Shown: positions 3,646-34,653 of the stretch, in pieces
Numbering within the stretch: the stretch's first letter is position 1
Layout of the letters: the number at the start of each line of letters is the position of its first letter
Virus record (IMG/VR): IMGVR_UViG_2917398303_000004
Span: 1-40,414 of that record
Source: a virus
Lineage: Duplodnaviria; Heunggongvirae; Uroviricota; Caudoviricetes
Direction: 5' to 3' (one strand)
Length of the DNA: 40,414 bases
Notes under the pieces: generated by a model
What the model was told of the DNA's origin: nothing
The model's database searches: none
Seen by the model: the letters and a program-made list of their open reading frames with translations, nothing else
Translations under genes and position numbers: made by a program

Positions 3646-3701
3646 ATGGACCTCATAAACGAAAAACCACCGAAGTGGGTTTGTTAAGATGTTGTTTGTG
3701 A

Positions 3702-6419
3702 TTAAGCTACATTGCCGGGGTAGGAGGCATTGTCGTATTGATAGAAGGAGTCGCGGTATTCTTTTGCTGTAACCTGACATGTTCCGTCAGACTGCGGTGA
3801 AATCTCTGAGATTAGTGCGCTGTAACCAACACGTGAAGATTCGCAGAATATAAGGCGTGGAGGTTCGATAGATTGATCATTCAGTATGATGCCGATGAAC
3901 TCATCCTGTTCAGACACCGATAATTCATAATCACTAACCTTAGTAACTGGAAGCAAACCAGACGCTGAGCCATCCTGATAGCGAATTAACGCGCGCGGAT
4001 TGTTGAATGTCCAGTCAAGTGGTTCTGATACAGCGATAGTTGTTACACCACCTACAGTTCTCATATGATCAATCAAAGTGCTGATTGTTTTGCTACCTGG
4101 AATGTCATCAGTAAAAACAATTCGGTCGCCTACGTTATAGCAAAGCGCGTCCATTTCCGTGGTCGTGGTATGGGTCAAACGCTGCTGCCTGTACTTCATC
4201 AGCCTTCGCATGCCTATCTGATAAGCTCTGTCCTGATCAAGCACGCCATCAAGCGTATAATCTTCAACTTTAACTGGAGTAGGATTACCCGATGTTCTGC
4301 ACTGAACCGTCTCTTCAGCCCACGTAGTGCCATTAATGTAAGTGACATCCACGCCATCATAATCATCGGCTGATGGTGCAACGAAGGCCGTTTGAAGCGC
4401 TTCTGTCATTTCCTGCGGGCTAATGATTCCCGTCCACGTTTTCACCCCCTCCCTTCCAACAGAAGCCATACCATCAGACAGCAGGAAATAGCTTTTACCT
4501 GCACTGGTGACTTTCTGAAACATTTCAAGAGCGGAAACTGAGTCTGTTGTTGCGTAATCGAAAAACTCGCTATCAGGCGTCCAGTAAGATGATTCCAGCA
4601 TATCAATCGCTTCGTTATCCATCGCAAGCCCCAGCTCATTTCCAATGTGGTATAGCGCACCTGAAATGCTCCTGGAAATACCGGAATCATAAATGCGTGT
4701 GGCGACTACGTTGACACGGCGATCGGACTGAGCGGCAAGCTTTCCACCCGTTTCGACTGAGACAGCCATAGTGGTTACACCAGAGTATGATGATGGTCTT
4801 GAAAGCAACCTCCCCCTCAATGACTGCCAGTACATGTTATCCCTGCTGTTATCCTGACCTTGTTCGTTCGTTCTCCTGCATCTAACCTCTACCAAACCGG
4901 CTGATGCCAACGTGATACGCTCAGTAAAACCTAACCCATTAATATTTTGCTGATTGTAAGATCCAGTTTTGCTGGTCCAGCCTGAACCAGAACCGTAAAC
5001 ACGGTATTGAATTTCCCACTGAACAATCCTGTTCTGCTTCCTGCCCTTCTTGTTATACCCACAAATACCGTTTGGGAAGAAGAAATTGACCTCAAACATA
5101 TCAACGACTTCATTATCTGGACATGTGAGAAACGGCCCCATCCATTTATTGTTCTGATTTAATCCGTTTGCTTCAAAATCAAGCACTGTACGCGGCGTGA
5201 AACCTGGCCATTCCGGGTCAACAGCACCCTCTACAACACGCTGTAAAGTAACGGTGCTGGCGTCGATTTCCAGAATTTTATATTCGCTGCCTGAGTGCGA
5301 TACTGATAAACGAATGTATCCTTCAGGAATACCAGTAAATGCTGTTCCGGTTGCGCTTTCATACGCCAGAGCGATTGACGCCGTAACAACGTCTTCATCA
5401 ACAGGTTCTGAATGGGGGATGTAATCAGCAATGAAAAGCTGGTAATCGATACTGTTGTACCAGAGAGTAACTGGCATACCGATGTATGGAGCAATCTCTT
5501 CCAGTGTGTCACTGGTTATTCTGCTGTATGCGCCATCATTGGTGACAACATAAGAATCTGGAACAATCAGTTCAACAATTGCACCTTCTGTCCATGAGTC
5601 AGGAAGGTCGTTTGTATCAGTATTTCCATCGTCAGTACTAAGGCCGTTAAAGGTGATATCTGCACCAGATACCGTTAATGAATCTGCTACAACATCCTGT
5701 GTATCCGGGGCTGTCTGCGCCATATCAAGACCAGAACCAGATGCCGTTCCGCCTACTTCTGTTGAGTTGAACCAGTTTTCCGTTCGCTGATCACCGATAA
5801 TGTTCTGTCCTGGCTGATATACATTATAGGTAAACCCATCACCAAGAGAGGCGATTGGCGTTGACCCAACGCGAATGTCGCCATCACCAAATGAAAAACG
5901 GCCCATACCCAGCACCACAAACATTTCAACCGTCATTACAGTCGGATCATCAGTTGAGAATCTTGTTACTGGTTGCACTGCATAATCTGGATAAATACGG
6001 CTGCGACCAAATAACTCGCGTATCGGATCACCCAATTTCGCGTTATTCGCTTTAGCAGGATTTACATCAAGTGGATTACCTGTTCCTGATGAATAACCAC
6101 CAAGATCACCAACACCAGGAGCAAAGAATAAAGCGTAAGCTACAGACGCAACTGATACGGCAACTGCAATCCAGGCGAGAGCTACAGCACCGTAAGGAAC
6201 AGGATAAATTCTGACGTCGCTATCCGGGCTGATTGCGAACTCAAACCACGCCTGAGATGGAATATTTTTCCCATCAACGTCAATTGTGATCGGCTGTTTA
6301 ATATCAGGCTTATAGCCCTCTACTTTTTTTGACAGCCATTGATGTATGGTTATAGCGCCATGTTCATGTGTTTCCAGCGGTTCGCCGGGGATGCGGGAGG
6401 GGTAAATTCGGATAGTCAC
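3702..6419 (-). CDS. Tail tip / host-specificity (central fibre, J-like) protein
   Basis: 905-aa protein immediately downstream of NlpC/P60 tail assembly gene and upstream of tail fibre; start overlaps upstream stop. Confidence 0.6.
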   Translation of the reverse strand: MTIRIYPSRIPGEPLETHEHGAITIHQWLSKKVEGYKPDIKQPITIDVDGKNIPSQAWFEFAISPDSDVRIYPVPYGAVALAWIAVAVSVASVAYALFFAPGVGDLGGYSSGTGNPLDVNPAKANNAKLGDPIRELFGRSRIYPDYAVQPVTRFSTDDPTVMTVEMFVVLGMGRFSFGDGDIRVGSTPIASLGDGFTYNVYQPGQNIIGDQRTENWFNSTEVGGTASGSGLDMAQTAPDTQDVVADSLTVSGADITFNGLSTDDGNTDTNDLPDSWTEGAIVELIVPDSYVVTNDGAYSRITSDTLEEIAPYIGMPVTLWYNSIDYQLFIADYIPHSEPVDEDVVTASIALAYESATGTAFTGIPEGYIRLSVSHSGSEYKILEIDASTVTLQRVVEGAVDPEWPGFTPRTVLDFEANGLNQNNKWMGPFLTCPDNEVVDMFEVNFFFPNGICGYNKKGRKQNRIVQWEIQYRVYGSGSGWTSKTGSYNQQNINGLGFTERITLASAGLVEVRCRRTNEQGQDNSRDNMYWQSLRGRLLSRPSSYSGVTTMAVSVETGGKLAAQSDRRVNVVATRIYDSGISRSISGALYHIGNELGLAMDNEAIDMLESSYWTPDSEFFDYATTDSVSALEMFQKVTSAGKSYFLLSDGMASVGREGVKTWTGIISPQEMTEALQTAFVAPSADDYDGVDVTYINGTTWAEETVQCRTSGNPTPVKVEDYTLDGVLDQDRAYQIGMRRLMKYRQQRLTHTTTTEMDALCYNVGDRIVFTDDIPGSKTISTLIDHMRTVGGVTTIAVSEPLDWTFNNPRALIRYQDGSASGLLPVTKVSDYELSVSEQDEFIGIILNDQSIEPPRLIFCESSRVGYSALISEISPQSDGTCQVTAKEYRDSFYQYDNASYPGNVA

Positions 6420-6796
6420 TTCCAGAACTCCACTTTAACAAAGCGCCGTTTGAAACGAGAAACAGGAAGAAATGTCACATTCATTCCCGGATTACATTCA
6501 GCAACGTGAAGTTGACCGTTTATCTCAACAACGACACCAACGTGGGTAACGGTTGACCCGGAATAACACGCAGCGCCTGCACCGACACAAGGATCGCATT
6601 TCTCAAGCGACCGCATCAGCTTTACTGCTTCTCGGTTAAGACCACCATCATCTTTAGTCACCCCGGAACAATCAGGCCAGAGAGGTAAACCGAGGTCTTT
6701 GCGTACCTCATTGACGATGCCGAAACAGTCAAGTTCAGGATAAACGCGCCCGCCCTTCTGCCAGAAGACTGAAAGGTATTTGTCAGGGTTGAACAT
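6416..6796 (-). CDS. NlpC/P60 (C40 peptidase) tail assembly protein, lambda K-like
   Basis: LDCFG...THVGVVV motifs consistent with a Cys/His NlpC/P60 active site; position after tape measure and minor tail genes. Confidence 0.65.
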   Translation of the reverse strand: MFNPDKYLSVFWQKGGRVYPELDCFGIVNEVRKDLGLPLWPDCSGVTKDDGGLNREAVKLMRSLEKCDPCVGAGAACYSGSTVTHVGVVVEINGQLHVAECNPGMNVTFLPVSRFKRRFVKVEFWK

Positions 6797-6805
6797 TGTT
6801 GCTCC

Positions 6806-7300
6806 TTAACTCATGTAACGGAGGCCAGGATAATATGGAAGGGTGTAACGATGACGGGGCCAGGCAGTATCGAGGACATTCATATAGCCTGCCGTTATCT
6901 GCGCCTGCGTAGATGTCCACGAACCACTCTTAATAGCCAGAGTATAGGGAACTGAAGCGGGTGCACTAAGGTCGGTAGATACGTAGTTACGATAGGTTAA
7001 AGATGCCTCTGATAGGTTATCCAGCGCGTTACGAATCGCAGTAGAAGTAACTCCATCAATATTGTCGATAGCAAACTGTAAATCCTGTGTACCGTCACTA
7101 TTTCTGGCAGGAAGAGCAATATCGATAGCTGCTGACTGAAATGTCACTTCATCGCCATTTTCAGTGACAGCCGTGATATCTTCGAAGCCTTTGCACAAGT
7201 AATAAACTTCAGTTCCAATGTTTATTTGCAGTGTTTCGATAATCACCTCTTCACCAGAAGAGGCGTAAAGACGATTGAGAATAGTCATGGTCTTGGCCAC
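6806..7300 (-). CDS. Minor tail protein (L-like position)
   Basis: 164-aa ORF in tail operon between tape measure and NlpC/P60 gene. Confidence 0.45.
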   Translation of the reverse strand: MAKTMTILNRLYASSGEEVIIETLQINIGTEVYYLCKGFEDITAVTENGDEVTFQSAAIDIALPARNSDGTQDLQFAIDNIDGVTSTAIRNALDNLSEASLTYRNYVSTDLSAPASVPYTLAIKSGSWTSTQAQITAGYMNVLDTAWPRHRYTLPYYPGLRYMS

Positions 7301-7758
7301 TCCCTGTTAAGCGCAATATCAATGATGCTGCTGTTGATAATGTAATCGGGGAACTCTCCCCAACCAGGAGCAAGAGCAGGCCTTTCCCATAGCTCAAGCG
7401 TGGCAGTAAATCGCCAGTAATTACCGCCCTCGATGGTTGGACCCTCGTAGATGTCTACGAACCGGCATACATACACGTCGATAATGCCAAGTGGTGAGCG
7501 AAGTGGCATGTTGAACCAGTCAGCACCATCTTTGATGGTGTCTCTGTACCACGCTTCAAAGAGTTGAGCCTCCGGATCTGTAAACAACCATGCCACTGAT
7601 GCCTGAGTTGGCGTTGAAGTGTACAGACGGCGTTGTCTTGCCCTGCCTGATGTAAGTTCTGTTCTCAGCAATGGGCTAACAGGCTTTAACCCGAACCCTT
7701 CCTGCAATGGAATAGGCAGGTAATCATTCGGATAGTTAATGCTGGTAGTTTTAGCCAT
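7285..7758 (-). CDS. Minor tail protein (M-like position)
   Basis: 157-aa ORF starting at the stop of the tape measure gene. Confidence 0.45.
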   Translation of the reverse strand: MAKTTSINYPNDYLPIPLQEGFGLKPVSPLLRTELTSGRARQRRLYTSTPTQASVAWLFTDPEAQLFEAWYRDTIKDGADWFNMPLRSPLGIIDVYVCRFVDIYEGPTIEGGNYWRFTATLELWERPALAPGWGEFPDYIINSSIIDIALNREWPRP

Positions 7759-10283
7759 TAACCCGTTCTCCTGTTAGTGTTCCAGCGCATCATCGCTTTT
7801 GAAATGTTTCCCTTGCCCCTTGCCAGGTCACTTGCTGCCTGTTGATAACCAAGTTTTGCTCCTTCTGTAGTTGCTTGTTTCATCATGGCAATCTGAGTGT
7901 CGGAAGGGTCACCGTTAACATTCATGTTTATAACGGGTGAGAAACTAGCCCCCTGCGTGGACTGCTGATTCACCCTGTCGAGTGTTTCATCAAGCTTGGC
8001 AGAGGTCTGGGAAGTAACGACGCGCTCCCCTTTCTGAAGAAGCCAAGTCCCGGTTTCTGGAACGCTGTCGATACCATCGTGCGCCATACCTGCAAAGGCA
8101 GAAGTGCCAACGGCTGCTACAAGCGGTGCAGTTACCGCCGCCGCTGTTGCCATCGCTGCAGGCGCAAGCGCTGGACCAACGATAGGAATTGCCGCTGTAG
8201 ATGCATAAGCGGCGATCTGAGCCTGTAAAGATGAAGCCTGCGCGTTTGCCAGCATTGATGCCGCTGCGCTTGCCTGAGTTGATTTACCTACCAGCAATTG
8301 CACCGCCTGATATACCAGCCATTGCGCCGCCATATCAGAAAGGGTTTTAATAATTGTTTCACCAAGTCCAGAGAAAATATTACTGAAGAAATCACCTAAA
8401 TCCTCTGCCCCGTGCACAAGATCATTCAGGTTGTCAGAGATGGATTCCGTTGCGCCATTGAGAATGGAGGTCATCGCATCGGCGGCGGTCTGGTAGTAAT
8501 CAGCAGAGTTATCAGCGTAATCATTCAACGCATCCATAATGCCGCTTTGCCAGTCACCCATCTGTGCGTCGGACTTTTTGTAATAGTCCTGCTGAATATC
8601 GAGACGCTCATCAAGTGCCTGCTGTAACGCTGCCGTCTCCTGGTCATAAAGCGATTTACTGATATCGCCGCTTTGGTATTGCTTCTGGAGGTCTGCCTGT
8701 CTGTCGAGAAAACTACGCTGAATATCCAGCAATTCCTTCATGCGCTGGCGAGTCTTATCGCCCATGCCTGCGCCAATAAAATCAGAATCATTAGCTGCCT
8801 GGTCATTCTGATTTTGTTTGCGTAAATTAGCGGTGAATTCGACAAGTTTCAGGTTTTCTTCGTTGGCTTTTTTCAGAGAGTTGAGACGGTCTATTTCCGT
8901 AGCAAGCTGCTCAAGGCGCTCTTTCTGTGCTGCATTAATCCCTGTTAATTTTCCGGAAGTGAAATCAAAACGAAGCTTCTCAAGCTCGGTGACCTGCTGA
9001 TTCTTTTTGCCAGTTGTGTCAATTAACGCAATCTGGCGCTGATAGCTCATTTCCAGAGACTTAAACGCTGACTCCAGCTTCTTGGCCCCGGCGTCTGGTG
9101 ATACTTTTCCGTTTGTCTCTCCTGAACCTAAGGAATAGTTTTTGCTGGATGATGATGGCCCACCGATGGTGGCCGGACTGAGAGGAAGATTATTACCGGC
9201 TTTCATAATGGAAAGTTGGCGTTCGAGCTGTGCTATTTCAACTTTCTTCCCGTCAACGTCCATACCAACTCTGTTAAAACTGGCAAGGAAGCCCTGGTCT
9301 TCTACATCCGCTTTGAGGTTGTTGAGTCGACGCTCTATATCAGTTACAGATGCATTGTCACCAACAGCCTTACCGCCTTTGTACAGGTCAATCAACTTAC
9401 CTGCTTCAGCGCCAACTTTCACAAGCCAGGTAGCGAGGTCAACTACGCCGCCAACCAGGTCTGTTAGTCCCTGAATCACCTGAGGGTCTTTGAAAACATC
9501 GCCCATGTCAGTGATCGCATTCTGTATTCCTGACAGGTCAACATTGGCAAGACCGGTAGCAATCTCAATTTTTACGCCGTTTACCTGTGCCTCCATGTCC
9601 TCAAACAGGGAGTTTACTTTCACCAGTTTTTCGATGTCTGCATCATCAGGAGCGACACCAAACTGCTTTGCCGCGTCCATGTACTGACGAAGCTTTTCAC
9701 CACCCTGATCAAGTAAGGGCAGGAGCTTTGACAGGTCATTACCAAGGCTTTCGAGAATGGTTGTTTTTTCGGCGTTTGTTTTTATCTTGCCAAGAGCATC
9801 ACTGATAGCGAGAAGTTGTTTATCAGGTGACTCACCGGCTAATTTTTTAGCGGATAATCCCAGCGCATCAAGCGCACCGACAGCTTCACCAGATTTATTT
9901 AAGACCGCATCACCAATCTTATCGCCAATATCCTTAAAGATATCAGCCATCTGGTCACCAGATACCCCAGCCTTTTCGGCTGCATACTGCCAGGCCAGCA
10001 GAGACTGAGTAGACATATTGAGCGACTTAGCCCAACGGTCTGTTTCAGTGATCTGTTTGGAAGTGGTTTTCAGCAGGTTATAACCAGCAACGCCTACACC
10101 AATTGCTGCAGCGCTTGCTGCTGCCGCAAAAGCGGTGAACGCGGTAGCCGCAGCCTTGGCGTCGGATTGTACCTGTTTTCGCCATTTTTGAGATGCTCGT
10201 TCAGCCTGGCTTAGACCAGATACAAATCCACCAACCTTAGCTACCAGGTCAATGGTCAGCGTTCCTAGGGATTTACCAGCCAT
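7758..10283 (-). CDS. Tail tape measure protein
   Basis: 841 aa, Ala/Gln-rich coiled-coil composition, located after G/GT chaperone. Confidence 0.85.
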   Translation of the reverse strand: MAGKSLGTLTIDLVAKVGGFVSGLSQAERASQKWRKQVQSDAKAAATAFTAFAAAASAAAIGVGVAGYNLLKTTSKQITETDRWAKSLNMSTQSLLAWQYAAEKAGVSGDQMADIFKDIGDKIGDAVLNKSGEAVGALDALGLSAKKLAGESPDKQLLAISDALGKIKTNAEKTTILESLGNDLSKLLPLLDQGGEKLRQYMDAAKQFGVAPDDADIEKLVKVNSLFEDMEAQVNGVKIEIATGLANVDLSGIQNAITDMGDVFKDPQVIQGLTDLVGGVVDLATWLVKVGAEAGKLIDLYKGGKAVGDNASVTDIERRLNNLKADVEDQGFLASFNRVGMDVDGKKVEIAQLERQLSIMKAGNNLPLSPATIGGPSSSSKNYSLGSGETNGKVSPDAGAKKLESAFKSLEMSYQRQIALIDTTGKKNQQVTELEKLRFDFTSGKLTGINAAQKERLEQLATEIDRLNSLKKANEENLKLVEFTANLRKQNQNDQAANDSDFIGAGMGDKTRQRMKELLDIQRSFLDRQADLQKQYQSGDISKSLYDQETAALQQALDERLDIQQDYYKKSDAQMGDWQSGIMDALNDYADNSADYYQTAADAMTSILNGATESISDNLNDLVHGAEDLGDFFSNIFSGLGETIIKTLSDMAAQWLVYQAVQLLVGKSTQASAAASMLANAQASSLQAQIAAYASTAAIPIVGPALAPAAMATAAAVTAPLVAAVGTSAFAGMAHDGIDSVPETGTWLLQKGERVVTSQTSAKLDETLDRVNQQSTQGASFSPVINMNVNGDPSDTQIAMMKQATTEGAKLGYQQAASDLARGKGNISKAMMRWNTNRRTG

Positions 10284-10284
10284 G

Positions 10285-10928
10285 CTATGTCCACTCCTGC
10301 ATAGCCTGCTCCAGTGAAATGGAAGGCTCGTTAATGTGTGGTGTGAAGTCTGTTACTTTGAAGGAGGGGGAATCTTTTCCACGATTGACGTTAGCCAGCA
10401 CAGAAGAGATAAGGCCAGCGGCCCACTCAGTACGCATCATTCCGTTAAGGCTACCGTACTTTTGACGGTAAAGAACCCAGTCGCGATACTCTGTAACGCT
10501 AACGCGTTCTTTTGCTTCAGCAATGGTACGACCGCCGATCCCGTTGAGAACTAATTCACACCAGAATTCGTCTTCTGCGCTGAGTTCGCCTTTCCCAGGT
10601 CGTTAACCTGCTGAATAGCGACAAGCAGAGCAACGGTAAGAGCACCATCAAGTGCGCCGCGCTCAGGGTCTGCTTCACCAGTGATATCGGCGACAGTGAA
10701 AACAGGTGCACCATTTTCATCACAGATTGATGCAGCAATACGCCCTGCAACACCATCAATTTTTCCCACTGCTGAAAGAACATTTGATACCGCGTCGTGA
10801 TAACCCATTGGGCGGATATAAACGGTAGCTGTGATCTCCTTATCACCTTGCTTCCAGGTAATTTCCTTTTCAACAGGACGACCAGTGAACGCCCCTGCCT
10901 GTTTTAACGAATCCATATTCAGTTTCAT
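10285..10928 (-). CDS. Tail assembly chaperone G-T fusion produced by programmed -1 frameshift
   Basis: Own translation: -1 frame is open from the GGGAAAG site (10590-10596) to TAG at 10285-10287, ending 1 nt before the tape measure ATG. Confidence 0.6.
10551..10928 (-). CDS. Tail assembly chaperone (G-like)
   Basis: 125-aa ORF between major tail and tape measure genes; contains slippery heptamer near its 3' end. Confidence 0.7.
   Translation of the reverse strand: MKLNMDSLKQAGAFTGRPVEKEITWKQGDKEITATVYIRPMGYHDAVSNVLSAVGKIDGVAGRIAASICDENGAPVFTVADITGEADPERGALDGALTVALLVAIQQVNDLGKANSAQKTNSGVN
10590..10596 (-). other. Slippery heptamer G GGA AAG (programmed -1 ribosomal frameshift site)
   Basis: Exact X XXY YYZ heptamer, identical to the lambda G/GT slip site, in the zero frame of the chaperone. 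Confidence 0.6.
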
Positions 10929-10978
10929 TTCTTTCCTCTCAATTTGCGGGGTTTCCCCCGCTCATTAATGTCTGGTTA

Positions 10979-11476
10979 TTAGCTTGTTGGTTGGGCCTTT
11001 GGAACCCAAACCCCCTGTCCTGAACGCTGAATAGTTGCTGAGGTTTGTACGACCGTATTAGCCTGGAAGTCGAACGGGAAATCAGAAACATAGCCCTGGA
11101 ATACATACCAGGTACGCGTATCCGGTAAAGAAAGACCATCTACTGCATCTGGATCACCAGAAGTCGCTACCGTTGGTTCATCCGTTCCATCAGCCCAGCC
11201 AATAGCGAAGGTCAGGTTTGTTTGATCGCTTGATTCGGCAAGATTGCTCAGCATGACATGACTGGTGTTTGCCGGGTCTGCGTTAAGAGCTACCGTAGCC
11301 TGACCAGGTGTGCGCAGACCTTTTTTGTAGGAACGAGTACTGGTTTCACTCAGACAGGTATCTTCAATCTGATCTGCCGGGCTACTACCTGGTGAGAACG
11401 AAGTAATACATTCAACTTCACTGACCACACCGTTATTCAGAACGTACATCTGAGTGCCTTGAGTCACTACTGACAT
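10979..11476 (-). CDS. Major tail (tube) protein
   Basis: 165-aa ORF directly upstream of the chaperone pair; preceded by a terminator/attenuator hairpin. Confidence 0.6.
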
Positions 11477-11490
11477 AATTATCTCCGGGT

Positions 11491-11517
11491 ATAAAAAAAC
11501 CGGCTCAAGGCCGGTTG
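11491..11517 (-). terminator. Rho-independent terminator/attenuator upstream of major tail gene (AACCGGCCTTGAGCCGGTT + T-run on minus strand)
   Basis: 7-bp GC-rich stem followed by 7 T on the minus strand. Confidence 0.5.
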
Positions 11518-11528
11518 TGGAAGGTTTG

Positions 11529-11894
11529 TTATCGGTTGACTATCCAGTCAACGTCGAAAGAATATCGATACCTGAGCGTCTCAGGGTCTCGCGTCTGATT
11601 ATCCCAGCGAACAATGTTGGCTTTTACCTCAATCGCATTACGCATGGCTTTAGCGACCGCAATAGCCTCATCAGGGGTATCGGCATAGATATCAACCTGA
11701 AGCGAATACATGTCCGCATCTGGTCGTTGGTTAAGGAAATTTTCAGGAGAGCCGCTGATGTTCTGCCAGACGGCGTATGGATAAACAACGTTATCGTCCT
11801 GAATACCGAAAGGGTAAATTCTTACCGGATTGCTTCCGAGTAGAGCAGTGACTTCAGGACTCGACGCGCAAACAGGAAAAATAGGAGCAATCAT
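11529..11894 (-). CDS. Tail completion / neck protein (hypothetical)
   Basis: 121-aa ORF in head-tail joining gene block. Confidence 0.4.
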
Positions 11895-12376
11895 GCCGTC
11901 TCTCCTTTCTTCTGTGCTCGTTTGATAGCTCGGTCAATCCCCGCTTCGTAGTTAACAGAGAAGGTGTTGAAAACCTCTATCAGCCTGGAATTTGCAGCAG
12001 CACGAACGAGCGGTTTTGCTGCCATCTTTTCAGTGCCAAACTCAAGAAGGCGCCAGTGAGGAGTGGGTGCATCTTTCGCAGTGCTTGGATGCTTTTTTAA
12101 TACGGCTCCCTGAAGAATTCCTATCCTGAAGGCAAGATCACCGGTTTGTTTAAACATACGACCATTCCAGCGCATCGCAGCGTTATCAGCAATGCTACGT
12201 GCGGTGTGAGGATCGTCGATCCGCTCTGCGTTTCTCTTTATCTGAGTTACGATAACGTTTCCCGCCTTCCTCAGTGCGGAGCGCCCTGTTTTGCGCTTAG
12301 TTTCCGTGGTAATGGCTTCTAACTTACCAAGCAGTGAATCTACACCTTCAAGCTTAAACTCAATGCTGTCAGCCAT
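11891..12376 (-). CDS. HK97 gp10-like head-tail joining protein
   Basis: 161-aa ORF, position and composition consistent with the HK97 gp10 family; overlapping stop/start. Confidence 0.5.
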   Translation of the reverse strand: MADSIEFKLEGVDSLLGKLEAITTETKRKTGRSALRKAGNVIVTQIKRNAERIDDPHTARSIADNAAMRWNGRMFKQTGDLAFRIGILQGAVLKKHPSTAKDAPTPHWRLLEFGTEKMAAKPLVRAAANSRLIEVFNTFSVNYEAGIDRAIKRAQKKGETA

Positions 12377-12701
12377 CCTTCACCCCCTCTGAGCACGGAA
12401 GCGTGAGATATTCAAGTCCACTATCAGGATCAGGAAGAATCCCCTCAATGCTGTAGATTTTGCCACGGAAAAGAATACGGTCTTTCTCCTGGATATCTTC
12501 CCGGTATCGGATAGTGATTCTGGCCGTTACTTTTACGTTTGATGCCTGGGCTGTAATGAAATCCCTGACCGAAGAGGCAACCACGCTACCCCACACCTCT
12601 GCAAGGTCATTCCAGGTGTATTCCATTGCACCAGTAGTAGGTGACTGTATAGTCGTTCTCCGCTGGATTGTGATGCGGTGGCGCAGTTTTGCAAATTCCA
12701 A
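12369..12701 (-). CDS. Head-tail adaptor / head closure protein
   Basis: 110-aa ORF with features of the phage head-tail joining family; operon position. Confidence 0.5.
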   Translation of the reverse strand: MEFAKLRHRITIQRRTTIQSPTTGAMEYTWNDLAEVWGSVVASSVRDFITAQASNVKVTARITIRYREDIQEKDRILFRGKIYSIEGILPDPDSGLEYLTLPCSEGVKDG

Positions 12702-12703
12702 AA

Positions 12704-12904
12704 TTACCTCGGCTTGCCATCAAGATAGGTTTGCGGTGGCAAATCATCGTCAATTTCATCAACGAGCGTTTTTGCAATCAGAGATACCAGCGTTTCATCA
12801 GCCTGAGCCAGGCGATTTATCGCTTCTGCCTGTTTGAGTTGAGACGCCGCCAGTGCCTTCAGCGCTACCGTTAATTCGTTTACCTGCTGCTCGTTCATAG
12901 GCAA
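12704..12904 (-). CDS. Hypothetical small virion-module protein
   Basis: 66-aa ORF tightly packed between head-tail genes. Confidence 0.35.
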   Translation of the reverse strand: MPMNEQQVNELTVALKALAASQLKQAEAINRLAQADETLVSLIAKTLVDEIDDDLPPQTYLDGKPR

Positions 12905-12969
12905 TCCTCGTCCACTTTTTTATCCACTCGCGCCGTTTGACGCATCCTGCGCATGCCATACCCGCCCCC

Positions 12970-13296
12970 TTAAAGAATTGTCGGCTTACGGAGGTCGTAA
13001 ATCAGCATTGAAACAGAAAATGGAAGTTCACCTTGTTTCAGCTTCTCTTCCTCTTCGCCGCCACGATTACGGTCAAGATAGCCAAGCAGAACCAACAGGG
13101 CTGTCTGAACGCGAGTAAGCGGCTCACCATCGATAAGTTTTCCAGTGTCATCAACGATCAGTGACCTGCTTCCCTGGATGTAAGAAAGGATTGCTGCACT
13201 TCCACCCTGTATTTTTAAGGTCAGGTCCAAATCACCGTAATCATCATCGATACGGAGATGAATTTTTGCCTCTTCGAGCGTCACCAGTTCAATCAT
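12970..13296 (-). CDS. Head-tail connector protein (gp6-like)
   Basis: N-terminal LEEAKxHLRIDDD motif typical of gp6-like connectors. Confidence 0.6.
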   Translation of the reverse strand: MIELVTLEEAKIHLRIDDDYGDLDLTLKIQGGSAAILSYIQGSRSLIVDDTGKLIDGEPLTRVQTALLVLLGYLDRNRGGEEEEKLKQGELPFSVSMLIYDLRKPTIL

Positions 13297-14177
13297 GGCT
13301 TATCCCTCAGGTCTCGACCTTTCTTAACAGCAAGTGTCCATCCCTTAGAGCCCGTTTCACCTGGTTTGTCGGTAGTAGGTTCGCTGCAGTGCCACATAGA
13401 GCCGCCCCATGTAACAGTGTCGCCAGGCTGATACTCTGTACCGGCTTTAAACACATCACGATAAATAGTTACCGGGATGTCAAAGGACTTAACTTCAACT
13501 GCTCCACTTGCTCTTTCCAGTGAGATTGAGAAGGTTCGCTGTTTATCCTGTTTGATATCGACGTTCGACACGCCATCAACGATGCATTCCCAGCCTCGCA
13601 TGCCGTGCGTCTTTTCATGAGAGCGCCAAAGACCGCCGTTGTGTGTTGCGTAAGTTCCGCGAGGGTAACTTTTCGTCTCGTCAATGAATGGTTCTAGCTC
13701 GATTGATAAAGCATCTTTACCATCGCTGCCAGGCTCAGGAACTTGAATGTTCGCGGCCACATCTTCAGCCAGTTTTTCAACATCTACCGGCTCTGGAAGT
13801 GATGCTGATACAACCTCTTCAACCAGAGAGCGAAGGTCTTCTGCACTGACGCTTTTACCATCCTTAGGCTTGGGTAGTGATTCTAAAGCCTGCTTCACCG
13901 CACTTTCGGCTGCGTCGTCAATGATCTGGCTAAAGTCGGGTAGTTCTGGTGATTTTGGCAACTCAATAGCGCTTACCGCTTCCGCAACCATTTTGGATAC
14001 ATCAGGAATTTCTACAGGTTGAACTTCAGGGATTGATCCCCTCAGTTCTTCAAGTTGCTTTTCCAGATTACTGGCTGTTTTCTCCAGCGCTTGATGAAAG
14101 TCATCTGCCATTTTTTGAATGGCTGTTCCAAACTCTTCACCAAGCGCCTTTATCAGGGATAATTCACGTTCATTCAT
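13293..14177 (-). CDS. Hypothetical head-module protein with coiled-coil N-terminus
   Basis: 294-aa ORF between portal and connector genes; acidic coiled-coil N-terminal half. Confidence 0.4.
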   Translation of the reverse strand: MNERELSLIKALGEEFGTAIQKMADDFHQALEKTASNLEKQLEELRGSIPEVQPVEIPDVSKMVAEAVSAIELPKSPELPDFSQIIDDAAESAVKQALESLPKPKDGKSVSAEDLRSLVEEVVSASLPEPVDVEKLAEDVAANIQVPEPGSDGKDALSIELEPFIDETKSYPRGTYATHNGGLWRSHEKTHGMRGWECIVDGVSNVDIKQDKQRTFSISLERASGAVEVKSFDIPVTIYRDVFKAGTEYQPGDTVTWGGSMWHCSEPTTDKPGETGSKGWTLAVKKGRDLRDKP

Positions 14178-15526
14178 TTTGTTAATAATCCTCTGAGCAT
14201 TGATTTCGCCGCGAAAAGTTCTGTCTCGGTTAATGCTTTTCCACCTTCGTCTACTGGCTCTGGCGATGGCTGCGTCTGTTGCGTCCCTTTCGCGAATGGG
14301 TCTTCTGATGCATCGCGCTTGGCCAGAGCTGCCAGGCTGTAGTTCTGCTGCTGCAGGAAGAGAGAATCACCACCTTCAACAGGAGGAAGGTTTTCACTTT
14401 TACGGGCTTCGTTTGGAGTAAGAATGGTGCTTTTGACGCCATCACCCAACGCTTTCATTCTGCGTTCGCTGTCCATGCGTAATAGTGCGCCGATATCAAG
14501 TTCAACCCGCTTTTTTACACCAAGATCGAAAGCTTCTTTCAGAAGAGACTCGATAGATTCAATCAGCACCTGCAGGCACTGTGAGTAATATTGTTGCTCA
14601 AGCGCTTCAACGTTGTCAGAACTGGGTATTTCTCCTACGCCAGCTTTATATGCCGGGACGTGGAAAGCTGAGCAAACCATTTCAGCAGAGAGTTTCTGCT
14701 GCTCAACAGTCTGTGCATCGACAGCTGACATGGTGATCGCTTTGTATTCTGCGCCGCCTGATAGCAGTCCAGTTTTCCCAGCATTTTCTCCGGTGTAACC
14801 TGTATCCCACCCTGCTTTAATTTCTCTCGCTTTAACTTCATCAATTGAGCCAGGAACAGTGATAACACCGCTTGGTTTACCTCCATTTTTAAAGAAGAAT
14901 GCAGAGCTTTCCTGAATGTGCTTCCCCTGCATTGCGGCGAGTCCGCAGGCGTAGATGGGAGAAATGCCAATAAGAGGATGAAATAGGCAATTAAAGCGAT
15001 CGTGAATGATTTCGCGTGCAGGTACGGTTACTTGTGCCGGGAGACCACTAATCTGGTCAGGACTGATTTGGTAAAAGACAGACCCGTCATCAGCGACCAA
15101 AGGGATGACTTTATCCGGATCAAGAATGCGAAGCTCTGTAATTTTCCCGGTATTATTTTTTACCTTCATCACGTAGGTGTTACCGCGTGAAAGTTTAGAA
15201 TTCATCCACGTTTCAAAGAACTGAATTGTGTTCTGAAACTGGTTAGGTTTGCTGATTAGTTTATCGAAATTGTCATCCGCAACTTCTTTCCAGATGCCAT
15301 TAGAATCTTTGGCCTGAATGGATGGCGACATCTTTGAAATGTCACTGGCAATCAGGGTTATGCAGGAAAACACCGCATAATAGGAAAGTACGGTTTCATT
15401 CCTGATTTCCATGTTTCTTTGCCAGGCGCCTGCGAAAGGTTCTCTGACAAAGGAAAATATTGGAGTCCAGCCGCGAGATGATGGTTGCTGTAGTGCTTTC
15501 TCTTTCCGTCTAAAAGGATTCCACAT
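14174..15526 (-). CDS. Portal protein (HK97 family)
   Basis: 450 aa with NGGKPSGV...GENAGKTGLLSGGAEYK region typical of the Phage_portal family. Confidence 0.7.
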   Translation of the reverse strand: MWNPFRRKEKALQQPSSRGWTPIFSFVREPFAGAWQRNMEIRNETVLSYYAVFSCITLIASDISKMSPSIQAKDSNGIWKEVADDNFDKLISKPNQFQNTIQFFETWMNSKLSRGNTYVMKVKNNTGKITELRILDPDKVIPLVADDGSVFYQISPDQISGLPAQVTVPAREIIHDRFNCLFHPLIGISPIYACGLAAMQGKHIQESSAFFFKNGGKPSGVITVPGSIDEVKAREIKAGWDTGYTGENAGKTGLLSGGAEYKAITMSAVDAQTVEQQKLSAEMVCSAFHVPAYKAGVGEIPSSDNVEALEQQYYSQCLQVLIESIESLLKEAFDLGVKKRVELDIGALLRMDSERRMKALGDGVKSTILTPNEARKSENLPPVEGGDSLFLQQQNYSLAALAKRDASEDPFAKGTQQTQPSPEPVDEGGKALTETELFAAKSMLRGLLTK

Positions 15527-15696
15527 CAGCCATTCTCCGCGTTAACTTTTTTCTTTTTCGGTCCGCCAGCTTTTTTGCCAGTCAAATATTCAGCTTTATG
15601 CAGCAGAACCAGCACCTTTGCGCACTGGTCATTCACATTTTTCTCATCACCTGGCAATGAGTCATGTGTACGCTGTAGGTATCTGATCTTTGCCAT
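15526..15696 (-). CDS. Small Lys-rich ORF (56 aa) translationally coupled to portal gene
   Basis: Own translation; TGATG stop/start overlap with portal ATG; below the ORF-track size cutoff. Confidence 0.3.
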   Translation of the reverse strand: MAKIRYLQRTHDSLPGDEKNVNDQCAKVLVLLHKAEYLTGKKAGGPKKKKVNAENG

Positions 15697-15728
15697 ATGA
15701 AATGGCGGGGTTTCCCCCGCCCTCCTTC

Positions 15729-17375
15729 TTAGCTGGTAGCGCCAGTGCTGTAATCAACGCCGGAGATAACAGCTACTGCTGCATCGCGACGGCGTTTCCA
15801 GTTAATCCAGCGCTCTGCACGAATGGCCACGCTGTTGGTCTGGAACATGGATACCAGTTCCACTGCCGTTGGTGTGGTGCTGTCATGGGTCGGAGTACTC
15901 TGCATTTCCAGAGAAGCTTCGCGAGACATATCAACGGCGACACCGCCGTCATCAGCCAGGTACACATCCGGCGCGTTAACCAATACCAACTGATTGCCAA
16001 CGTACTGGGAGACAATTACTGGCAGACCCTGGAATGTACCGCCCAGCATGGTCATGTCAGGATACTCTTTCTGGCCCAGGGCATTTTTACGCATTGAGAG
16101 AGTGAGAGCCGTAGTACTGGACATCAGCCATACCGCGCCATTCGGCTGCAGGTTATTGGTAATAAATTGACCAAATGCTGCTGCAGCATCGGTATCCGGA
16201 TCGCCAGTAGACGGAATCGCAGTAATGCCGTTGGTAATAGATGCAGGGGAAACATCAGCCACTGCCGCTTTTGCCGGGTCGATGAAGTCGGTATCCAGCC
16301 GCGCGATCACCGCTTCAGCCAGGGCGTTACGCACCAGAGCATCAGCAGATGGATTTGAGAAACGGATCAACTCTTCGGTCAGTACTGCAATAGAAGCCAC
16401 CTTGGAGAAACCGAAGGTGATGGTTGCGAAGTCAAACTTGGTCAGAGGCTTGGCTTTACCCTGACCAACCCAGTTAGCAGAACCTCCGGAGGTCTGCGCC
16501 GGAATTCGAACATTGAACGGAACCTGACGCAGGGACGGGATGTTACCCTGGCCAAAACGTCCGATAATGGTCTGAGGACGCAGAAACTCAACGAAATCCT
16601 GCGCGTAATCCTGATATTCAACCAGTGCACCAGCCCAGGCAGGGTCTGTGGTAGTGCCAGCACTTACCGCAGCTTTCAGAACGTGATGAAGTTTGGTGTC
16701 ATCAGGATACTGGTTTTTCGCAATCTGTAGCGCTTCGGAGCGGCTACCGTTACCAGCTGCCAGAGACTTGGCAAAACGGGCAAAGGCAATACCTTTTTCC
16801 AGCTTAGGCTCTACACGGATGATGGATGGTGCGTTATTCACCACTGTAACTTCACCAGATGCTGCTTTAGTTACTGGCTTGGCGGTTGATGCCATGCTGG
16901 TTTCCATATCACGCAGGCGTTTAAGGTGCTCGTCGACCGCTTTGATTTCAGTAGAGGTGTTGTCGTAGCTTTCTGTTTCTTCCGCATCCAGCGTGCGGCC
17001 TTCATCGGCGGCTTTGCTCATGATGTCGTTCAGTGAAGAGGCCAGCGCTGCACGCTTGTTTTCAAAACTTTTGATCTGTTCAGCGATATTCATCGTTGAT
17101 TTTCCTTTTTGAGAAGATTTATTCGGTGCTGAAGCGCCAGCAGAATTTATGGTTTTCACTACCGGTTTCTCAGTGCCGAGCGCGGCGAGTAACTGGCGGT
17201 CAAACGATTTAACGGTTTGAATCGAACACTCGGCATTCGCCGGGATCGTTACTGCAGAGACTTCAAGAAGCTCCCATTCAAGAAAATGGATGCCACCAGA
17301 GCCGAGATATGCGTATTTAATTGGCTTGAAGCCGATAGAAAGGCCTTTCACAGACCTGATTTGATCGATGCCCAC
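15729..17375 (-). CDS. Major capsid protein (HK97 fold) with N-terminal scaffold-like delta region and the C-terminal part of an S78 prohead protease domain
   Basis: GLSIGF protease Ser motif at N-terminus, coiled-coil segment, then capsid-fold core; in a different frame from the protease N-terminal ORF. Confidence 0.75.
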   Translation of the reverse strand: MGIDQIRSVKGLSIGFKPIKYAYLGSGGIHFLEWELLEVSAVTIPANAECSIQTVKSFDRQLLAALGTEKPVVKTINSAGASAPNKSSQKGKSTMNIAEQIKSFENKRAALASSLNDIMSKAADEGRTLDAEETESYDNTSTEIKAVDEHLKRLRDMETSMASTAKPVTKAASGEVTVVNNAPSIIRVEPKLEKGIAFARFAKSLAAGNGSRSEALQIAKNQYPDDTKLHHVLKAAVSAGTTTDPAWAGALVEYQDYAQDFVEFLRPQTIIGRFGQGNIPSLRQVPFNVRIPAQTSGGSANWVGQGKAKPLTKFDFATITFGFSKVASIAVLTEELIRFSNPSADALVRNALAEAVIARLDTDFIDPAKAAVADVSPASITNGITAIPSTGDPDTDAAAAFGQFITNNLQPNGAVWLMSSTTALTLSMRKNALGQKEYPDMTMLGGTFQGLPVIVSQYVGNQLVLVNAPDVYLADDGGVAVDMSREASLEMQSTPTHDSTTPTAVELVSMFQTNSVAIRAERWINWKRRRDAAVAVISGVDYSTGATS

Positions 17376-17665
17376 GCTTCTTCAAGCCTAGCCACAAGTT
17401 GCGATGGCATGTCAGGTGTTGGCTTAACAAGTTGCGCCGTGATCTGAAGCCCTTCATTCACTTTCTTTGCAGAACAGTTCCCAATAGGTTGGGTTCTGTC
17501 GTGCTGCCAGAGAAAAGGGTTTTCACTGCCGAACTTCGCACCGTCTGGGTCCATAATGTCGCCGTCACGGTCAGGTGATGGTGTGGAAGCAATCCCGGTG
17601 ATTATCCGTTTGTCCTCATCCACCGCTTTCACCGTCATGATCGTACATGCGCGGTCAAGCTTCAT
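17348..17665 (-). CDS. Prohead protease (S78/U35 family) N-terminal portion, frame-broken from the downstream ORF
   Basis: Contains the WQHD catalytic His region; the Ser motif lies in the overlapping ORF 15729-17375. Confidence 0.55.
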   Translation of the reverse strand: MKLDRACTIMTVKAVDEDKRIITGIASTPSPDRDGDIMDPDGAKFGSENPFLWQHDRTQPIGNCSAKKVNEGLQITAQLVKPTPDMPSQLVARLEEAWASIKSGL

Positions 17666-17723
17666 TTACTGTCCTCCAGAAACGAAAAAAACCGCCGCTG
17701 CGGGTTATTAACTGACGTGTTAT

Positions 17724-17996
17724 TTATATAAAAAAAACCTGGTAATCTTTCTTCTTCGCTTCAGGATTAAGTGCCATTAGCGAAACGGCATTAAACAGGG
17801 CCATAAGGGGGTCAATTTTCCCCTTTCCGCTGGCCTGTTTGGTGATGAGGATAGCGTTACCTTTTGGCTCTACTCTGGCGTTGCCTACACACCAGGCCAT
17901 TAATGGCTGTCCACCATGAATAAGCACCTCCCTCTGCAAGCTTGCGCTCTGTTGTCTTAATCGCACCACCAAGTCTCCAGCCCTGGCTGACACCAA
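17724..17996 (-). CDS. Terminase large subunit C-terminal fragment (alternative frame)
   Basis: HGGQPLMAWCVGNARVEPKGNAIL...GKIDPLMA resembles terminase large subunit C-termini. Confidence 0.5.
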   Translation of the reverse strand: MVSARAGDLVVRLRQQSASLQREVLIHGGQPLMAWCVGNARVEPKGNAILITKQASGKGKIDPLMALFNAVSLMALNPEAKKKDYQVFFI

Positions 17997-19383
17997 CCAC
18001 TGAATCTTCAGGTATTTCAGCTTCTACAAGAGCATCAAGAATCTGACCGACACCAGAAGGGTCAATGCCAATTTTATCCAGCAGTTCCGCATCATTAATA
18101 CGGCTGACATATTCAGCGACTTCCTCCGTGTCCTGTCCTACTCGTTTTACGATAGTGAGGTCACCGGCCTTAACGAAATCGTTGAACCTGGATTCCTCGC
18201 TTTTGCGGCGGCGCACAGCTATTTCATGCGCCCAGGCATGGCCCCAGCCAATCCACTCACGGGTTTCTTTGTCACGACCAATAATGTAAAGACCAAGAAG
18301 GTCATCAAGGCCACCACCATCTATCCCAACCGTAGCAACCTCAGCTCTCTGAAGGATATCGCTGAATGTTACCTGCCTAATTTGCGGCTCCCAGAAATCA
18401 ACGCCTGCCCATCGGTCACTGCGGAGGTTCAGACCAATTTCGATATTGAGGTGTTTCGCAAGGAACTGCTGTAATGTGCCGTCTGTTTTGTTCTGGTTCT
18501 TCAGAAGCTGATCGGCAATCCATTCTTCACTTACCGAACGTCCAATATTTGGATTGGTGATGTAGAAATTTTTTGGTTCAAGGTAAGCCTTACTTTCCAC
18601 CATAGAGTCAGGGAATTCATACAGGACGCCGAGTGTTTTAAGGTCATTAATCTTTCCATCTCGCACAGCACGCCAGTAATCAAGGCGTTCTTTGAATACA
18701 CCAGCAGGTGGTTCATCACTTTGTGTAGTCAGGAATATAACCCAGCCTTCGTTGCGAGATACCTGACCACCAAGTGCTTCCATAAACATGGCTTCGGCAT
18801 TAGCTCGCTTGCCAAACAACCAAAGCTCATCAACCAGAATGCGCCCTGACTTTTTACCTGAAACAGTATCGGTGTCAGCTGCTACTACTTTGAGTGTATT
18901 TCGCGTTACTCGGTGTGTGATGGTGCGGATATGGTCCTGAATCTGGAACATATCAGACAGCTCATCATCGGCGCGTATCATCCCGGCAGCAGGTTTAAAA
19001 CTGTTATCTGCAACCTCTTTTGTCGGCGCGAGAATCAGGTGCTCTTCATCTTCACGCCAGCACAGGATTAGCGCGGTCAGCATAATCCCTGCAGCGATGG
19101 TCGATTTTGTGTTCTTTTTCGAGATAAGTAGTCCATATTCGCGGATTAACTGCTTACCAGTCTCTGCTTCATAGCCACCGAAGATGGCATTTACAAAGTC
19201 AAATACCCATTCCTCTGAGCACTCACCAAATGTTGGCTTCCCTGGTAAATCAGAGACGCGTAACTCTTTGAAGATTCCAAGTGCCTGTTCTGCCTGGTCT
19301 GGGAAAATTGGTGGTGGGATGATTGATTGCTTTGCAACCAGAAGAGATTCCCATTCAGGGCAAGCCGTGGTCCATTGAGCCAT
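17857..19383 (-). CDS. Terminase large subunit (frame-disrupted near its 3' end)
   Basis: ATPase and nuclease-like regions; C-terminal terminase sequence continues in ORF 17724-17996 in another frame. Confidence 0.8.
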   Translation of the reverse strand: MAQWTTACPEWESLLVAKQSIIPPPIFPDQAEQALGIFKELRVSDLPGKPTFGECSEEWVFDFVNAIFGGYEAETGKQLIREYGLLISKKNTKSTIAAGIMLTALILCWREDEEHLILAPTKEVADNSFKPAAGMIRADDELSDMFQIQDHIRTITHRVTRNTLKVVAADTDTVSGKKSGRILVDELWLFGKRANAEAMFMEALGGQVSRNEGWVIFLTTQSDEPPAGVFKERLDYWRAVRDGKINDLKTLGVLYEFPDSMVESKAYLEPKNFYITNPNIGRSVSEEWIADQLLKNQNKTDGTLQQFLAKHLNIEIGLNLRSDRWAGVDFWEPQIRQVTFSDILQRAEVATVGIDGGGLDDLLGLYIIGRDKETREWIGWGHAWAHEIAVRRRKSEESRFNDFVKAGDLTIVKRVGQDTEEVAEYVSRINDAELLDKIGIDPSGVGQILDALVEAEIPEDSVVGVSQGWRLGGAIKTTERKLAEGGAYSWWTAINGLVCRQRQSRAKR

Positions 19384-19923: not shown

Positions 19924-19949
19924 CCACTGATACCCCCCCGGGTGTTTGG

Positions 19950-22792: not shown

Positions 22793-22819
22793 AAAAAAGC
22801 CCCGCTATTGCGAGGCTAT
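22793..22819 (-). terminator. Rho-independent terminator, copy 2 of a 27-bp perfect repeat
   Basis: AAAAAAGCCCCGCTATTGCGAGGCTAT on + strand; hairpin plus T6 on minus strand; identical to 24161-24187. Confidence 0.55.
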
Positions 22820-24593: not shown

Positions 24594-25201
24594 GCAATCA
24601 CCGCTTTCGCTTTGGTGTAACGAACACACCTGTCGTTAATGCCGTTCTGACCGCCATTGATAATCTGAGTGATGCGCGCCAGGTCATCGGTGTACTTCAG
24701 ACAACCTTTGGAGACGTAGAACCATGCAGCAGAACGTGCAGCATTAATGTCTTTCTCCAGCAGTTCAGGGTTAGTAACCAGGTCAAGCTTCAGACCATTG
24801 CCGCAATCGCGGTAATTAGTGAGACCGGTAATCTGAATTAACCCGCGTCCACGGTATTTCCAGCCATAACCAGCAGCTTTGTTACCAAGACGGTTGCTGT
24901 ATACCAGGTTTGCGATAGCTTCCTGACTTGCTGGCTTACCGTTCGCACGCCCAAGCATTGATGCCTGATAGTTCGTTGCCCGGCGTCCAAACGTAGTCAG
25001 TAATGCAGCAGGCGTGTAGTTGAAGTTCTCCACCAGCGCAGAGAATCCCGCTGATTCATGGCCTGCCTGAGCAATGAACATCGCCTTATCTTTTGGCTCA
25101 GTGATGCCAAACTCTTTCATTGCATCCGTAATCGGCTGAAACCAGCGCGCAGCTAACCCGGCGCTAATAACAGCCGCCTGTTGAAATTGTGATTGGTTCA
25201 T
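24590..25201 (-). CDS. Endolysin, glycoside hydrolase family 19 (chitinase-like lysozyme)
   Basis: AQAGHESAGF and YRGRGLIQITG motifs of GH19 lysozymes. Confidence 0.85.
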   Translation of the reverse strand: MNQSQFQQAAVISAGLAARWFQPITDAMKEFGITEPKDKAMFIAQAGHESAGFSALVENFNYTPAALLTTFGRRATNYQASMLGRANGKPASQEAIANLVYSNRLGNKAAGYGWKYRGRGLIQITGLTNYRDCGNGLKLDLVTNPELLEKDINAARSAAWFYVSKGCLKYTDDLARITQIINGGQNGINDRCVRYTKAKAVIA

Positions 25202-25458
25202 TAGTGCCTCAGAGCATCAATAAGACGCGCCACGTTTCCCCGAGCCCAAAGCACGGCGGCGCATATCAGGATGTTAACGATGACCACCAGCCAGTGTGAT
25301 TCCAGGTATAGGCCGAACAGATAGCGGAACGGGATGCTGGCATAAACCAGCACCGTGAAATAAGCGAGAAGAGAAACTATCGGGCGATGTCAGGCACCGC
25401 CACGCTGGTAAAACATCAGAGTAAGAACGATGATCGCGCTAATGCCCGCATTGATCAT
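25201..25458 (-). pseudogene. Holin-like small membrane protein interrupted by in-frame TGA (25390-25392)
   Basis: Own translation: MINAGISAIIVLTLMFYQRGGA-stop-HRPIVSLLAYFTVLVYASIPFRYLFGLYLESHWLVVIVNILICAAVLWARGNVARLIDALRH; TAATG overlap with endolysin start. Confidence 0.35.
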
Positions 25459-25468
25459 CGCTGAAGGA

Positions 25469-25864
25469 TCACTTGTTACCATTGCCGGTCCCTCCACCAC
25501 GTAAACGCGAGAGAATTCCAAACAGGCTACCCAAATCCTGGCTGTTGACGAAAGTCAACAGCTTAATAGCAATTGCGGCAACGATTACCGCGCCCAGCGC
25601 ATCAAGTGGTCTGTCGCTATACCCCGTCCATTTGGAGAAGAAGGAGCCAAGCAGTGGCGCGCCAATAACGCCGAAGATGAATGAGGTGATGAAGTAGCCA
25701 GTCAGCTTAAGGCGGCTGATATTAACCGCCGTAGCGACGTAGAATACCGCGCCAGCGAATGCGCCAAACACAACACCATAATCAATACCGGTTGCGATAC
25801 CAAAAACACTGGCTCCCATAAGGCCACCAGCGGCAACCGTAGTGCCAGAAACAGGATCGGACAT
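25469..25864 (-). CDS. Multi-TM membrane protein, putative holin
   Basis: 131 aa, 3-4 predicted hydrophobic helices, first gene of lysis block. Confidence 0.45.
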   Translation of the reverse strand: MSDPVSGTTVAAGGLMGASVFGIATGIDYGVVFGAFAGAVFYVATAVNISRLKLTGYFITSFIFGVIGAPLLGSFFSKWTGYSDRPLDALGAVIVAAIAIKLLTFVNSQDLGSLFGILSRLRGGGTGNGNK

Positions 25865-34574: not shown

Positions 34575-34653
34575 GCGGCATTAGCTCAGTTGGATAGAGC
34601 AACGGCCTTCTAAGCCGTGTGGGTCGCAGGTTCGAATCCTGCATGCTGCACCA
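34575..34653 (+). tRNA. tRNA-Arg (anticodon UCU) with encoded CCA
   Basis: Hand-folded cloverleaf: 7-bp acceptor, D-arm, anticodon stem ACGGC/GCCGT with loop CTTCTAA, 7-nt variable loop, T-arm GCAGG-TTCGAAT-CCTGC; resembles argU-type tRNA. Confidence 0.8.

Follow-up and report, generated by a model that had tools for sequence, protein, structure and literature searches.

Results

A prohead protease-capsid gene lying in two reading frames

The window, by which we mean the whole 40,414-nucleotide stretch of tailed-phage DNA analysed here, carries on its minus strand a phage head gene that is distributed over two reading frames. The first frame (17348..17665) holds the N-terminal 105 codons of a protease domain, contains FLWQHD and has the C-terminus ...EEAWASIKSGL, followed by a TGA stop at 17348-17350. 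The second frame (15729-17375, stop codon 15729-15731) encodes 548 aa from an upstream GTG, begins with MGIDQIRSVKGLSIGF and comprises the Ser motif, a linker and, further on, a capsid domain; it reads ...IRSVKGLSIGFKP... and then runs for ~540 codons to the stop at 15729. Rejoining the two frames takes a -1 shift. The initial annotation had placed the catalytic His region (LWQHD) in the first of these ORFs and the Ser motif (GLSIGF) in the second, in another frame, and both motifs are indeed found there. In the codon view, the TGA is joined as GTGA (17348..17351) to a GTG that encodes Val106 when the protein is intact, and the gene caller starts a 540-aa product at this GTG in a second assembly of the region (Logan, see below; L005 577-2199, equivalent to window 17351 downward). 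The stop/start overlap is created by the loss of a base and is regarded as accidental. Plus-strand ORFs across the gene, e.g. 15690-16097 and 17217-17447, are short, antisense and within conserved coding region, and were treated as chance.

Putting one T back into the gene yields a 1938-nt frame of 645 codons, referred to here as the repaired protein. Its residues 49-153 (17208..17521, minus strand) match Peptidase_S78 (PF04586) in Pfam (39.9 bits; cut-off 21), and it is this domain that the frame break disrupts. Residues 385-634 (15765..16514, minus strand) match the HK97-family major capsid domain Phage_capsid (PF05065) (56.2 bits; cut-off 24.2), and the capsid part also matches the solved major capsid protein 9d9w (E = 1.3e-5), so that the proposal that the second ORF runs into an HK97-fold capsid protein holds. 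The 105-aa piece taken alone has no Pfam match, and the 548-aa piece alone matches only the C-terminal third of S78 (21.8 bits). Between the two domains, residues 193-262 (16881..17090, minus strand) form a helical, highly charged segment with 1 proline or glycine per 70 residues and 34% charged residues, presumed from its composition to be a scaffold or delta-like domain. A coiled coil had been suggested for this region; in what was a rough check only, the charged and Pro/Gly-poor composition fits that description, and a weak, non-significant alignment was obtained with the N-terminal part of a major head protein of solved structure.

In alignment with gp4 of HK97, LWQHD corresponds to FFNHK and GLSIGF to GMSVGF. 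His55 (CAC, 17501..17503, minus strand) thereby falls on gp4 His65 and Ser110 (TCT, 17337..17339, minus strand, second frame) on gp4 Ser114, which we take to be the catalytic residues of that protease. As the frame breaks after Leu105, inside the compact catalytic domain and 5 residues N-terminal of Ser110, His55 and Ser110 end up in different frames. In the deposited sequence the two residues are therefore not on one polypeptide, the TGA at 17348-17350 standing between them, and no single ORF covers both domains (1937 nt in two frames), all owing to one base; with one T restored, His and Ser are on one chain.

One T is missing from a TT pair that relatives retain

The indel was located by the alignment to intact homologues that had been recommended with the initial annotation, and it amounts to a single T lost from a TT pair at 17352/17353 (minus strand; C-T in the window, C-T-T in relatives). 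The deposited sequence across the lesion is GGTCTGTG. Where the window has GGTCT-GTG, eight related loci have GGTCTTGTG, and at base level TCAGGTCT-GTGAAAGG in the window is opposed to TCAGGTCTTGTGAAAGG in relatives. The alignments were taken against L001, L002, L003, L004, L010, L011 and L013, of which L010, L011 and L013 are all 99.7% identical to the window and have TT; TT is also present in a Citrobacter freundii metagenome-assembled genome (MAG). In three of the close relatives the fusion gene is one CDS of 1938 nt, as against 1937 nt in the window, and the product of L016 (GCA_007867525.1) is likewise 645 aa long. The repaired protein differs from that of L011 at 5 of 645 residues, and from that of L001 also at 5.

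Of the 5426 complete E. coli genomes covered by the search, about 975 carry a relative of the fusion gene. By megablast, four E. coli chromosomes match at 94.6-98% identity and ~970 more, together with 32 phage records, at ~72%; among the matches listed with gene annotation, a single capsid or head-protease gene lies under the match. A pattern scan that allowed either T or TT, with one genome per species, returned a single locus, the Citrobacter MAG, with TT. The exact 105-aa product was found in no other sample beyond the Logan assembly of run SRR6148338 (contig SRR6148338_450).

No sequence signal for recoding

Since the second frame does not open before 17383, a productive shift would be confined to 17348-17383. 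A scripted scan of these 36 nt revealed no X_XXY_YYZ heptamer, bearing out the earlier remark that the overlap lacks an obvious slippery sequence, and the final 60 nt of ORF 17348-17665 contain no run of at least four identical bases. None of the related loci examined has the two-frame arrangement; all are in frame. A protein-database search with the 105-aa piece returned short fragments only and no full-length fusions, and this search informs on the scatter of break points, not on how many homologues are intact or split. The 14 fragment homologues that were read break at varying places along the domain, and not one of them stops at ...SIKSGL (0/14). Homologues forming two genes with the same boundaries, which the initial annotation had named as the observation that would speak against a lesion, were thus not found, and the scatter has the look of sporadic errors or mutations rather than of a conserved feature.

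Programmed frameshifting and transcriptional slippage were ruled out as candidates by the lack of a heptamer, of a base run and of conservation, and two separate genes as the native state by the single CDS in relatives. Since there is neither a slippery heptamer nor a relative with the same break, recoding can, judging from sequence, be considered excluded for practical purposes.

The source record and its other one-base indels

Exact-product look-ups identified the window as 100% identical to GenBank PDIB01000034.1 (assembly GCA_004745285.1), from the Escherichia cryptic clade II strain E4694. This draft was assembled with MIRA and SPAdes from single-end Ion Torrent reads only (35-400 nt, 50x; PMC6639607). 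The NCBI gene list of the contig has no protein between TerS and the portal, which suggests that the terminase gene and the fusion gene were annotated as pseudogenes.

The large terminase gene (17724..19383, minus strand) is split as well, into ORFs of 508 aa and 90 aa, by an extra G at 17927/17928: the window has GAGGGAGGTGC where the 99.7% relatives have GAGGGAGTGC, i.e. GG instead of G. With one G removed, TerL is 552 aa long and 100% identical to TerL of L011. When all 52 annotated genes of a related prophage were compared with the window at the protein level, only the terminase and the fusion gene were split. The indels specific to the window relative to L010, L011 and L013 (17352, 17927, 22793) are all changes of run length by one base; that at 22793 lies between genes, with T6 in the record and T5 in the Logan assembly and relatives. 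At 19933, also between genes, there is G7 versus G8 in two relatives.

A similar lesion affects the host. The gene tcyL (yecS, cystine permease; L018 17135-17801), which is situated on the same contig ~7 kb to the right of the window and outside the prophage, is split over two frames with no protein called, its A-run being one base longer than in E. coli (TATAAAAAAC vs TATAAAAGC). A further homopolymer error probably accounts for this; the remaining 19 host genes of the flanks are of normal length. There is accordingly 1 broken gene in ~16 kb of host flank as compared with 2 in 40 kb of prophage, and the similar frequency of frame-breaking indels in host DNA and prophage indicates that the errors arise outside the prophage as well. 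For an Ion Torrent-only bacterial assembly, roughly one false frameshift per 7 kb was reported (64 left after curation; PMC3917457), a density similar to that of the broken genes here.

A second assembly of the same region

The Logan assembly of run SRR6148338, presumably made from reads of the same isolate, covers most of the window in three contigs, whose near-identity to the GenBank record suggests that SRR6148338 represents the reads behind that record. Over about 34 kb the two versions differ by 0 substitutions and 3 one-base indels. At 4766, Logan (L027) has G where the record has GG, which falsely splits a 905-aa TipJ tail protein into 570 + 306 aa, and at 18416 the Logan version (L012) has lost a single A inside TerL; the GenBank record and the relatives are intact at both positions. 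The third is the T-run at 22793, at which the relatives side with Logan. Differences that are all indels, located in runs of 1-6 bases, are the signature of flow-based length miscalls. One Logan contig ends at 17939 and the next starts at 17927, and the 11 nt of 17928-17938 (TGCAGAGGGAG), exactly over the TerL indel, are unassembled. The 508-aa TerL fragment, looked up as an exact product, was not found, which follows from the different indel and the contig break that Logan has there.

At 17352, Logan lacks the T too, and over 2724-17927 its sequence matches that of the window at 100%, save for the one base at 4766. That both assemblies agree at 17352 implies that most reads lack the T. We considered whether this agreement proves a mutation and found it not decisive, the reads being presumably the same Ion Torrent reads and Logan containing false undercalls of its own. 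These undercalls occur at 1- and 2-base runs and are hence frequent enough in the read set to mislead an assembler.

Prophage setting

The prophage lies between yecA and a tRNA-Leu(taa)/Cys/Gly cluster adjoining pgsA (L020 9074-10001, L018 11011-11590), and its integrase gene ends exactly at the right edge of the window. It carries a tRNA-Arg(tct) at 34575-34653. At the left end, an acyltransferase-3 family gene (PF01757; 330-1439, plus strand), likely O-antigen-modifying cargo, adjoins a tailspike gene (Tail_spike_N/Beta_helix; 2029-3780, minus strand); no close match to this left end was found in the E. coli genomes searched. Just before the tape measure gene is a tail assembly chaperone pair (10288-10928, minus strand), consisting of a 125-aa TAC and a downstream 'T' segment in another frame, an arrangement typical of the conserved programmed -1 frameshift of long-tailed phages. 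In the host DNA beyond dcyD (L018 18800-21011), other small genes occupy the place of tcyJ-fliZ-fliA, which the compared genomes with this integrase (probably E. coli) have there; neither tcyJ nor fliZ was found in the interval by tblastn.

Lesions of another kind

The second holin gene (25201-25482, minus strand; 93 aa, PF05449 in relatives) contains a TGA at 25390-25392 where three relatives have AGA (Arg31). The nonsense substitution is present in both assemblies and is probably a real mutation. Being a substitution, and as such not an error of the Ion Torrent type, it suggests that the prophage may truly be decaying. The 131-aa holin gene upstream of the broken one is intact.

The sister prophages L010 and L013 (99.7% identical) have a 6.2-kb deletion that joins window position 16833, within the fusion gene, to 10637, within the tail chaperone gene, with junctions at L010 12071 and L013 5081. 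What remains is a 288-aa ORF with the S78 domain only; the capsid domain and the portal, connector and tail-tube genes are gone. Both prophages are clearly defective, which indicates that decay is common in this lineage.

Discussion

Analysis of the two-frame head gene in the E4694 prophage indicates with near certainty that its frame break is an unprogrammed single-base lesion in an otherwise ordinary and already known type of fused head gene. The initial annotation had ranked a frameshift mutation or an assembly error above programmed recoding, and the intact relatives together with the missing slippery heptamer support that order. As to how the base came to be missing, a sequencing or assembly artefact is, on balance, the explanation that we favour. 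The locus is a conventional prophage head gene, encoding an S78 prohead protease, a helical, presumably scaffold/delta-like linker and an HK97-fold major capsid protein, and according to this explanation a homopolymer-length miscall at 17352/17353 would have been carried into the Ion Torrent-only consensus. The real DNA of E4694 would then encode an intact 645-codon fusion, and nothing biological would take place at the break.

An assembly or sequencing error is favoured over a mutation by the Ion Torrent-only nature of the draft in combination with the one-base homopolymer-length indels nearby. That the repaired genes are otherwise undamaged, with 5 differences in 645 residues for the fusion and 100% identity for TerL, was also counted for an artefact, as were the lesion in the host gene tcyL and the one-base undercalls of the Logan assembly. 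Four observations were counted against it. Logan reproduces the missing T, a 2-base run is a less typical site of Ion Torrent error than a long run, the nonsense substitution in the holin gene suggests that this prophage may be decaying, and the 6.2-kb deletion in L010 and L013 shows decay in the lineage. On this balance we infer a miscall at 17352/17353 in preference to a real loss of the T.

The strongest competing explanation, which we consider the lesser probability though a substantial one, is that the T was genuinely lost from a decaying E4694 prophage and that the loss inactivated the protease-capsid gene. Translation would then end after 105 residues with neither a functional protease nor a functional capsid protein, and with the terminase and holin lesions added the element would be a cryptic prophage unable to form particles. 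The single T in two assemblies speaks for such a deletion, as do the stop in the 93-aa holin gene, seen in both of them, and the sister prophages L010 and L013 with their 6.2-kb loss from the capsid domain to part of the tail chaperone; the lack of an NCBI protein between TerS and the portal is consistent with annotation as a pseudogene. However, two assemblies that presumably derive from one set of Ion Torrent reads do not confirm each other independently, and one-base errors of this sort demonstrably arise from these reads. A genuine deletion further needs two separate recent frameshifts in adjacent and otherwise pristine genes. All of the indels are run-length changes, a host core gene, tcyL, has a like lesion, and the truncated product occurs in no other sample of the collection.

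It is very improbable that the two-frame layout is functional, either through a programmed -1 frameshift or through termination at GTGA and re-initiation to give cooperating protease pieces. The evidence for it is circumstantial: the deletion happens to make a GTG overlapping a TGA, which the gene caller uses, and elsewhere in this prophage the tail chaperone genes (~10288-10928) are expected to use a programmed -1 frameshift. Yet 17348-17383 contains no X_XXY_YYZ and there is no run of at least four bases that could serve transcriptional slippage, and the break sits within a compact catalytic domain, 5 residues ahead of the Ser. Nor is the layout conserved, as eight related loci at 72-99.7% DNA identity have a single in-frame gene, as do those genomes with annotation that are listed among the 944 matches in E. 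coli, and truncated database homologues break at scattered positions. Also very improbable is that the T is truly absent and heads are made nonetheless, with GTGA coupling translation of a 105-aa His piece to that of a 540-aa Ser-scaffold-capsid piece and the two reassembling into an active, naturally split prohead protease.

The frame break matters mainly for quality control. Unless reads support them, the frame breaks in PDIB01000034.1 should not be taken for pseudogenes or sites of recoding, and this caution probably extends to the project's other 15 Ion Torrent drafts. A real lesion would show no more than that the prophage is defective.

Comparison with known systems places the locus in familiar company. 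Intact orthologues are found in Escherichia and Citrobacter prophages, namely WP_042063962.1 (E. coli PCP07014, L001/L015), WP_113621788.1, WP_394742198.1 and the 645-aa products on GCA_965183505.1 (L011) and GCA_007867525.1 (L016). They are 95-99.7% identical to the window at the DNA level and have the same neighbours (TerS, TerL, fusion gene, portal, connectors, tail), but carry TT in place of T and hence one uninterrupted CDS of 1938 nt. Further away, long-tailed Stx-converting phages (1717, ACI43153.1; 2851; YYZ-2008; JLK-2012; Pankowvirus) encode a fused 'major head protein/prohead protease' with the same arrangement of S78 protease, linker and HK97-type capsid protein and with the genes likewise ordered TerS, TerL, fusion gene, portal. 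These belong to a more distant lineage (DNA ~72% identical across 91% of the query; protein 65% identical in the N-terminal 226 residues, which comprise protease and linker), and, unlike in the window, their gene is intact. In HK97 itself, gp4 (MEROPS S78/PF04586) and gp5 (capsid with delta domain) resemble the two halves of the fusion in that the catalytic His and Ser align and the capsid matches PF05065; in contrast, protease and capsid are separate genes there, with the portal upstream, and protein identity is only ~29%.

The error process has a precedent as well, since false frameshifts in Ion Torrent-only assemblies are, as here, one-base run-length changes that split conserved genes, at roughly one per 7-20 kb in the published case (PMC3917457) and at this locus taken together. 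The classic cases involve runs of at least 4 bases, whereas the lesion described here is in a 2-base run, although a 2-base undercall is demonstrably present at 4766 in the same read set. Fusion of an S78 protease to a capsid protein has already been described, e.g. in thaumarchaeal proviruses (PMC6563490). There is nothing new at this locus, and the fused protease-capsid family to which it belongs is well populated and already annotated.
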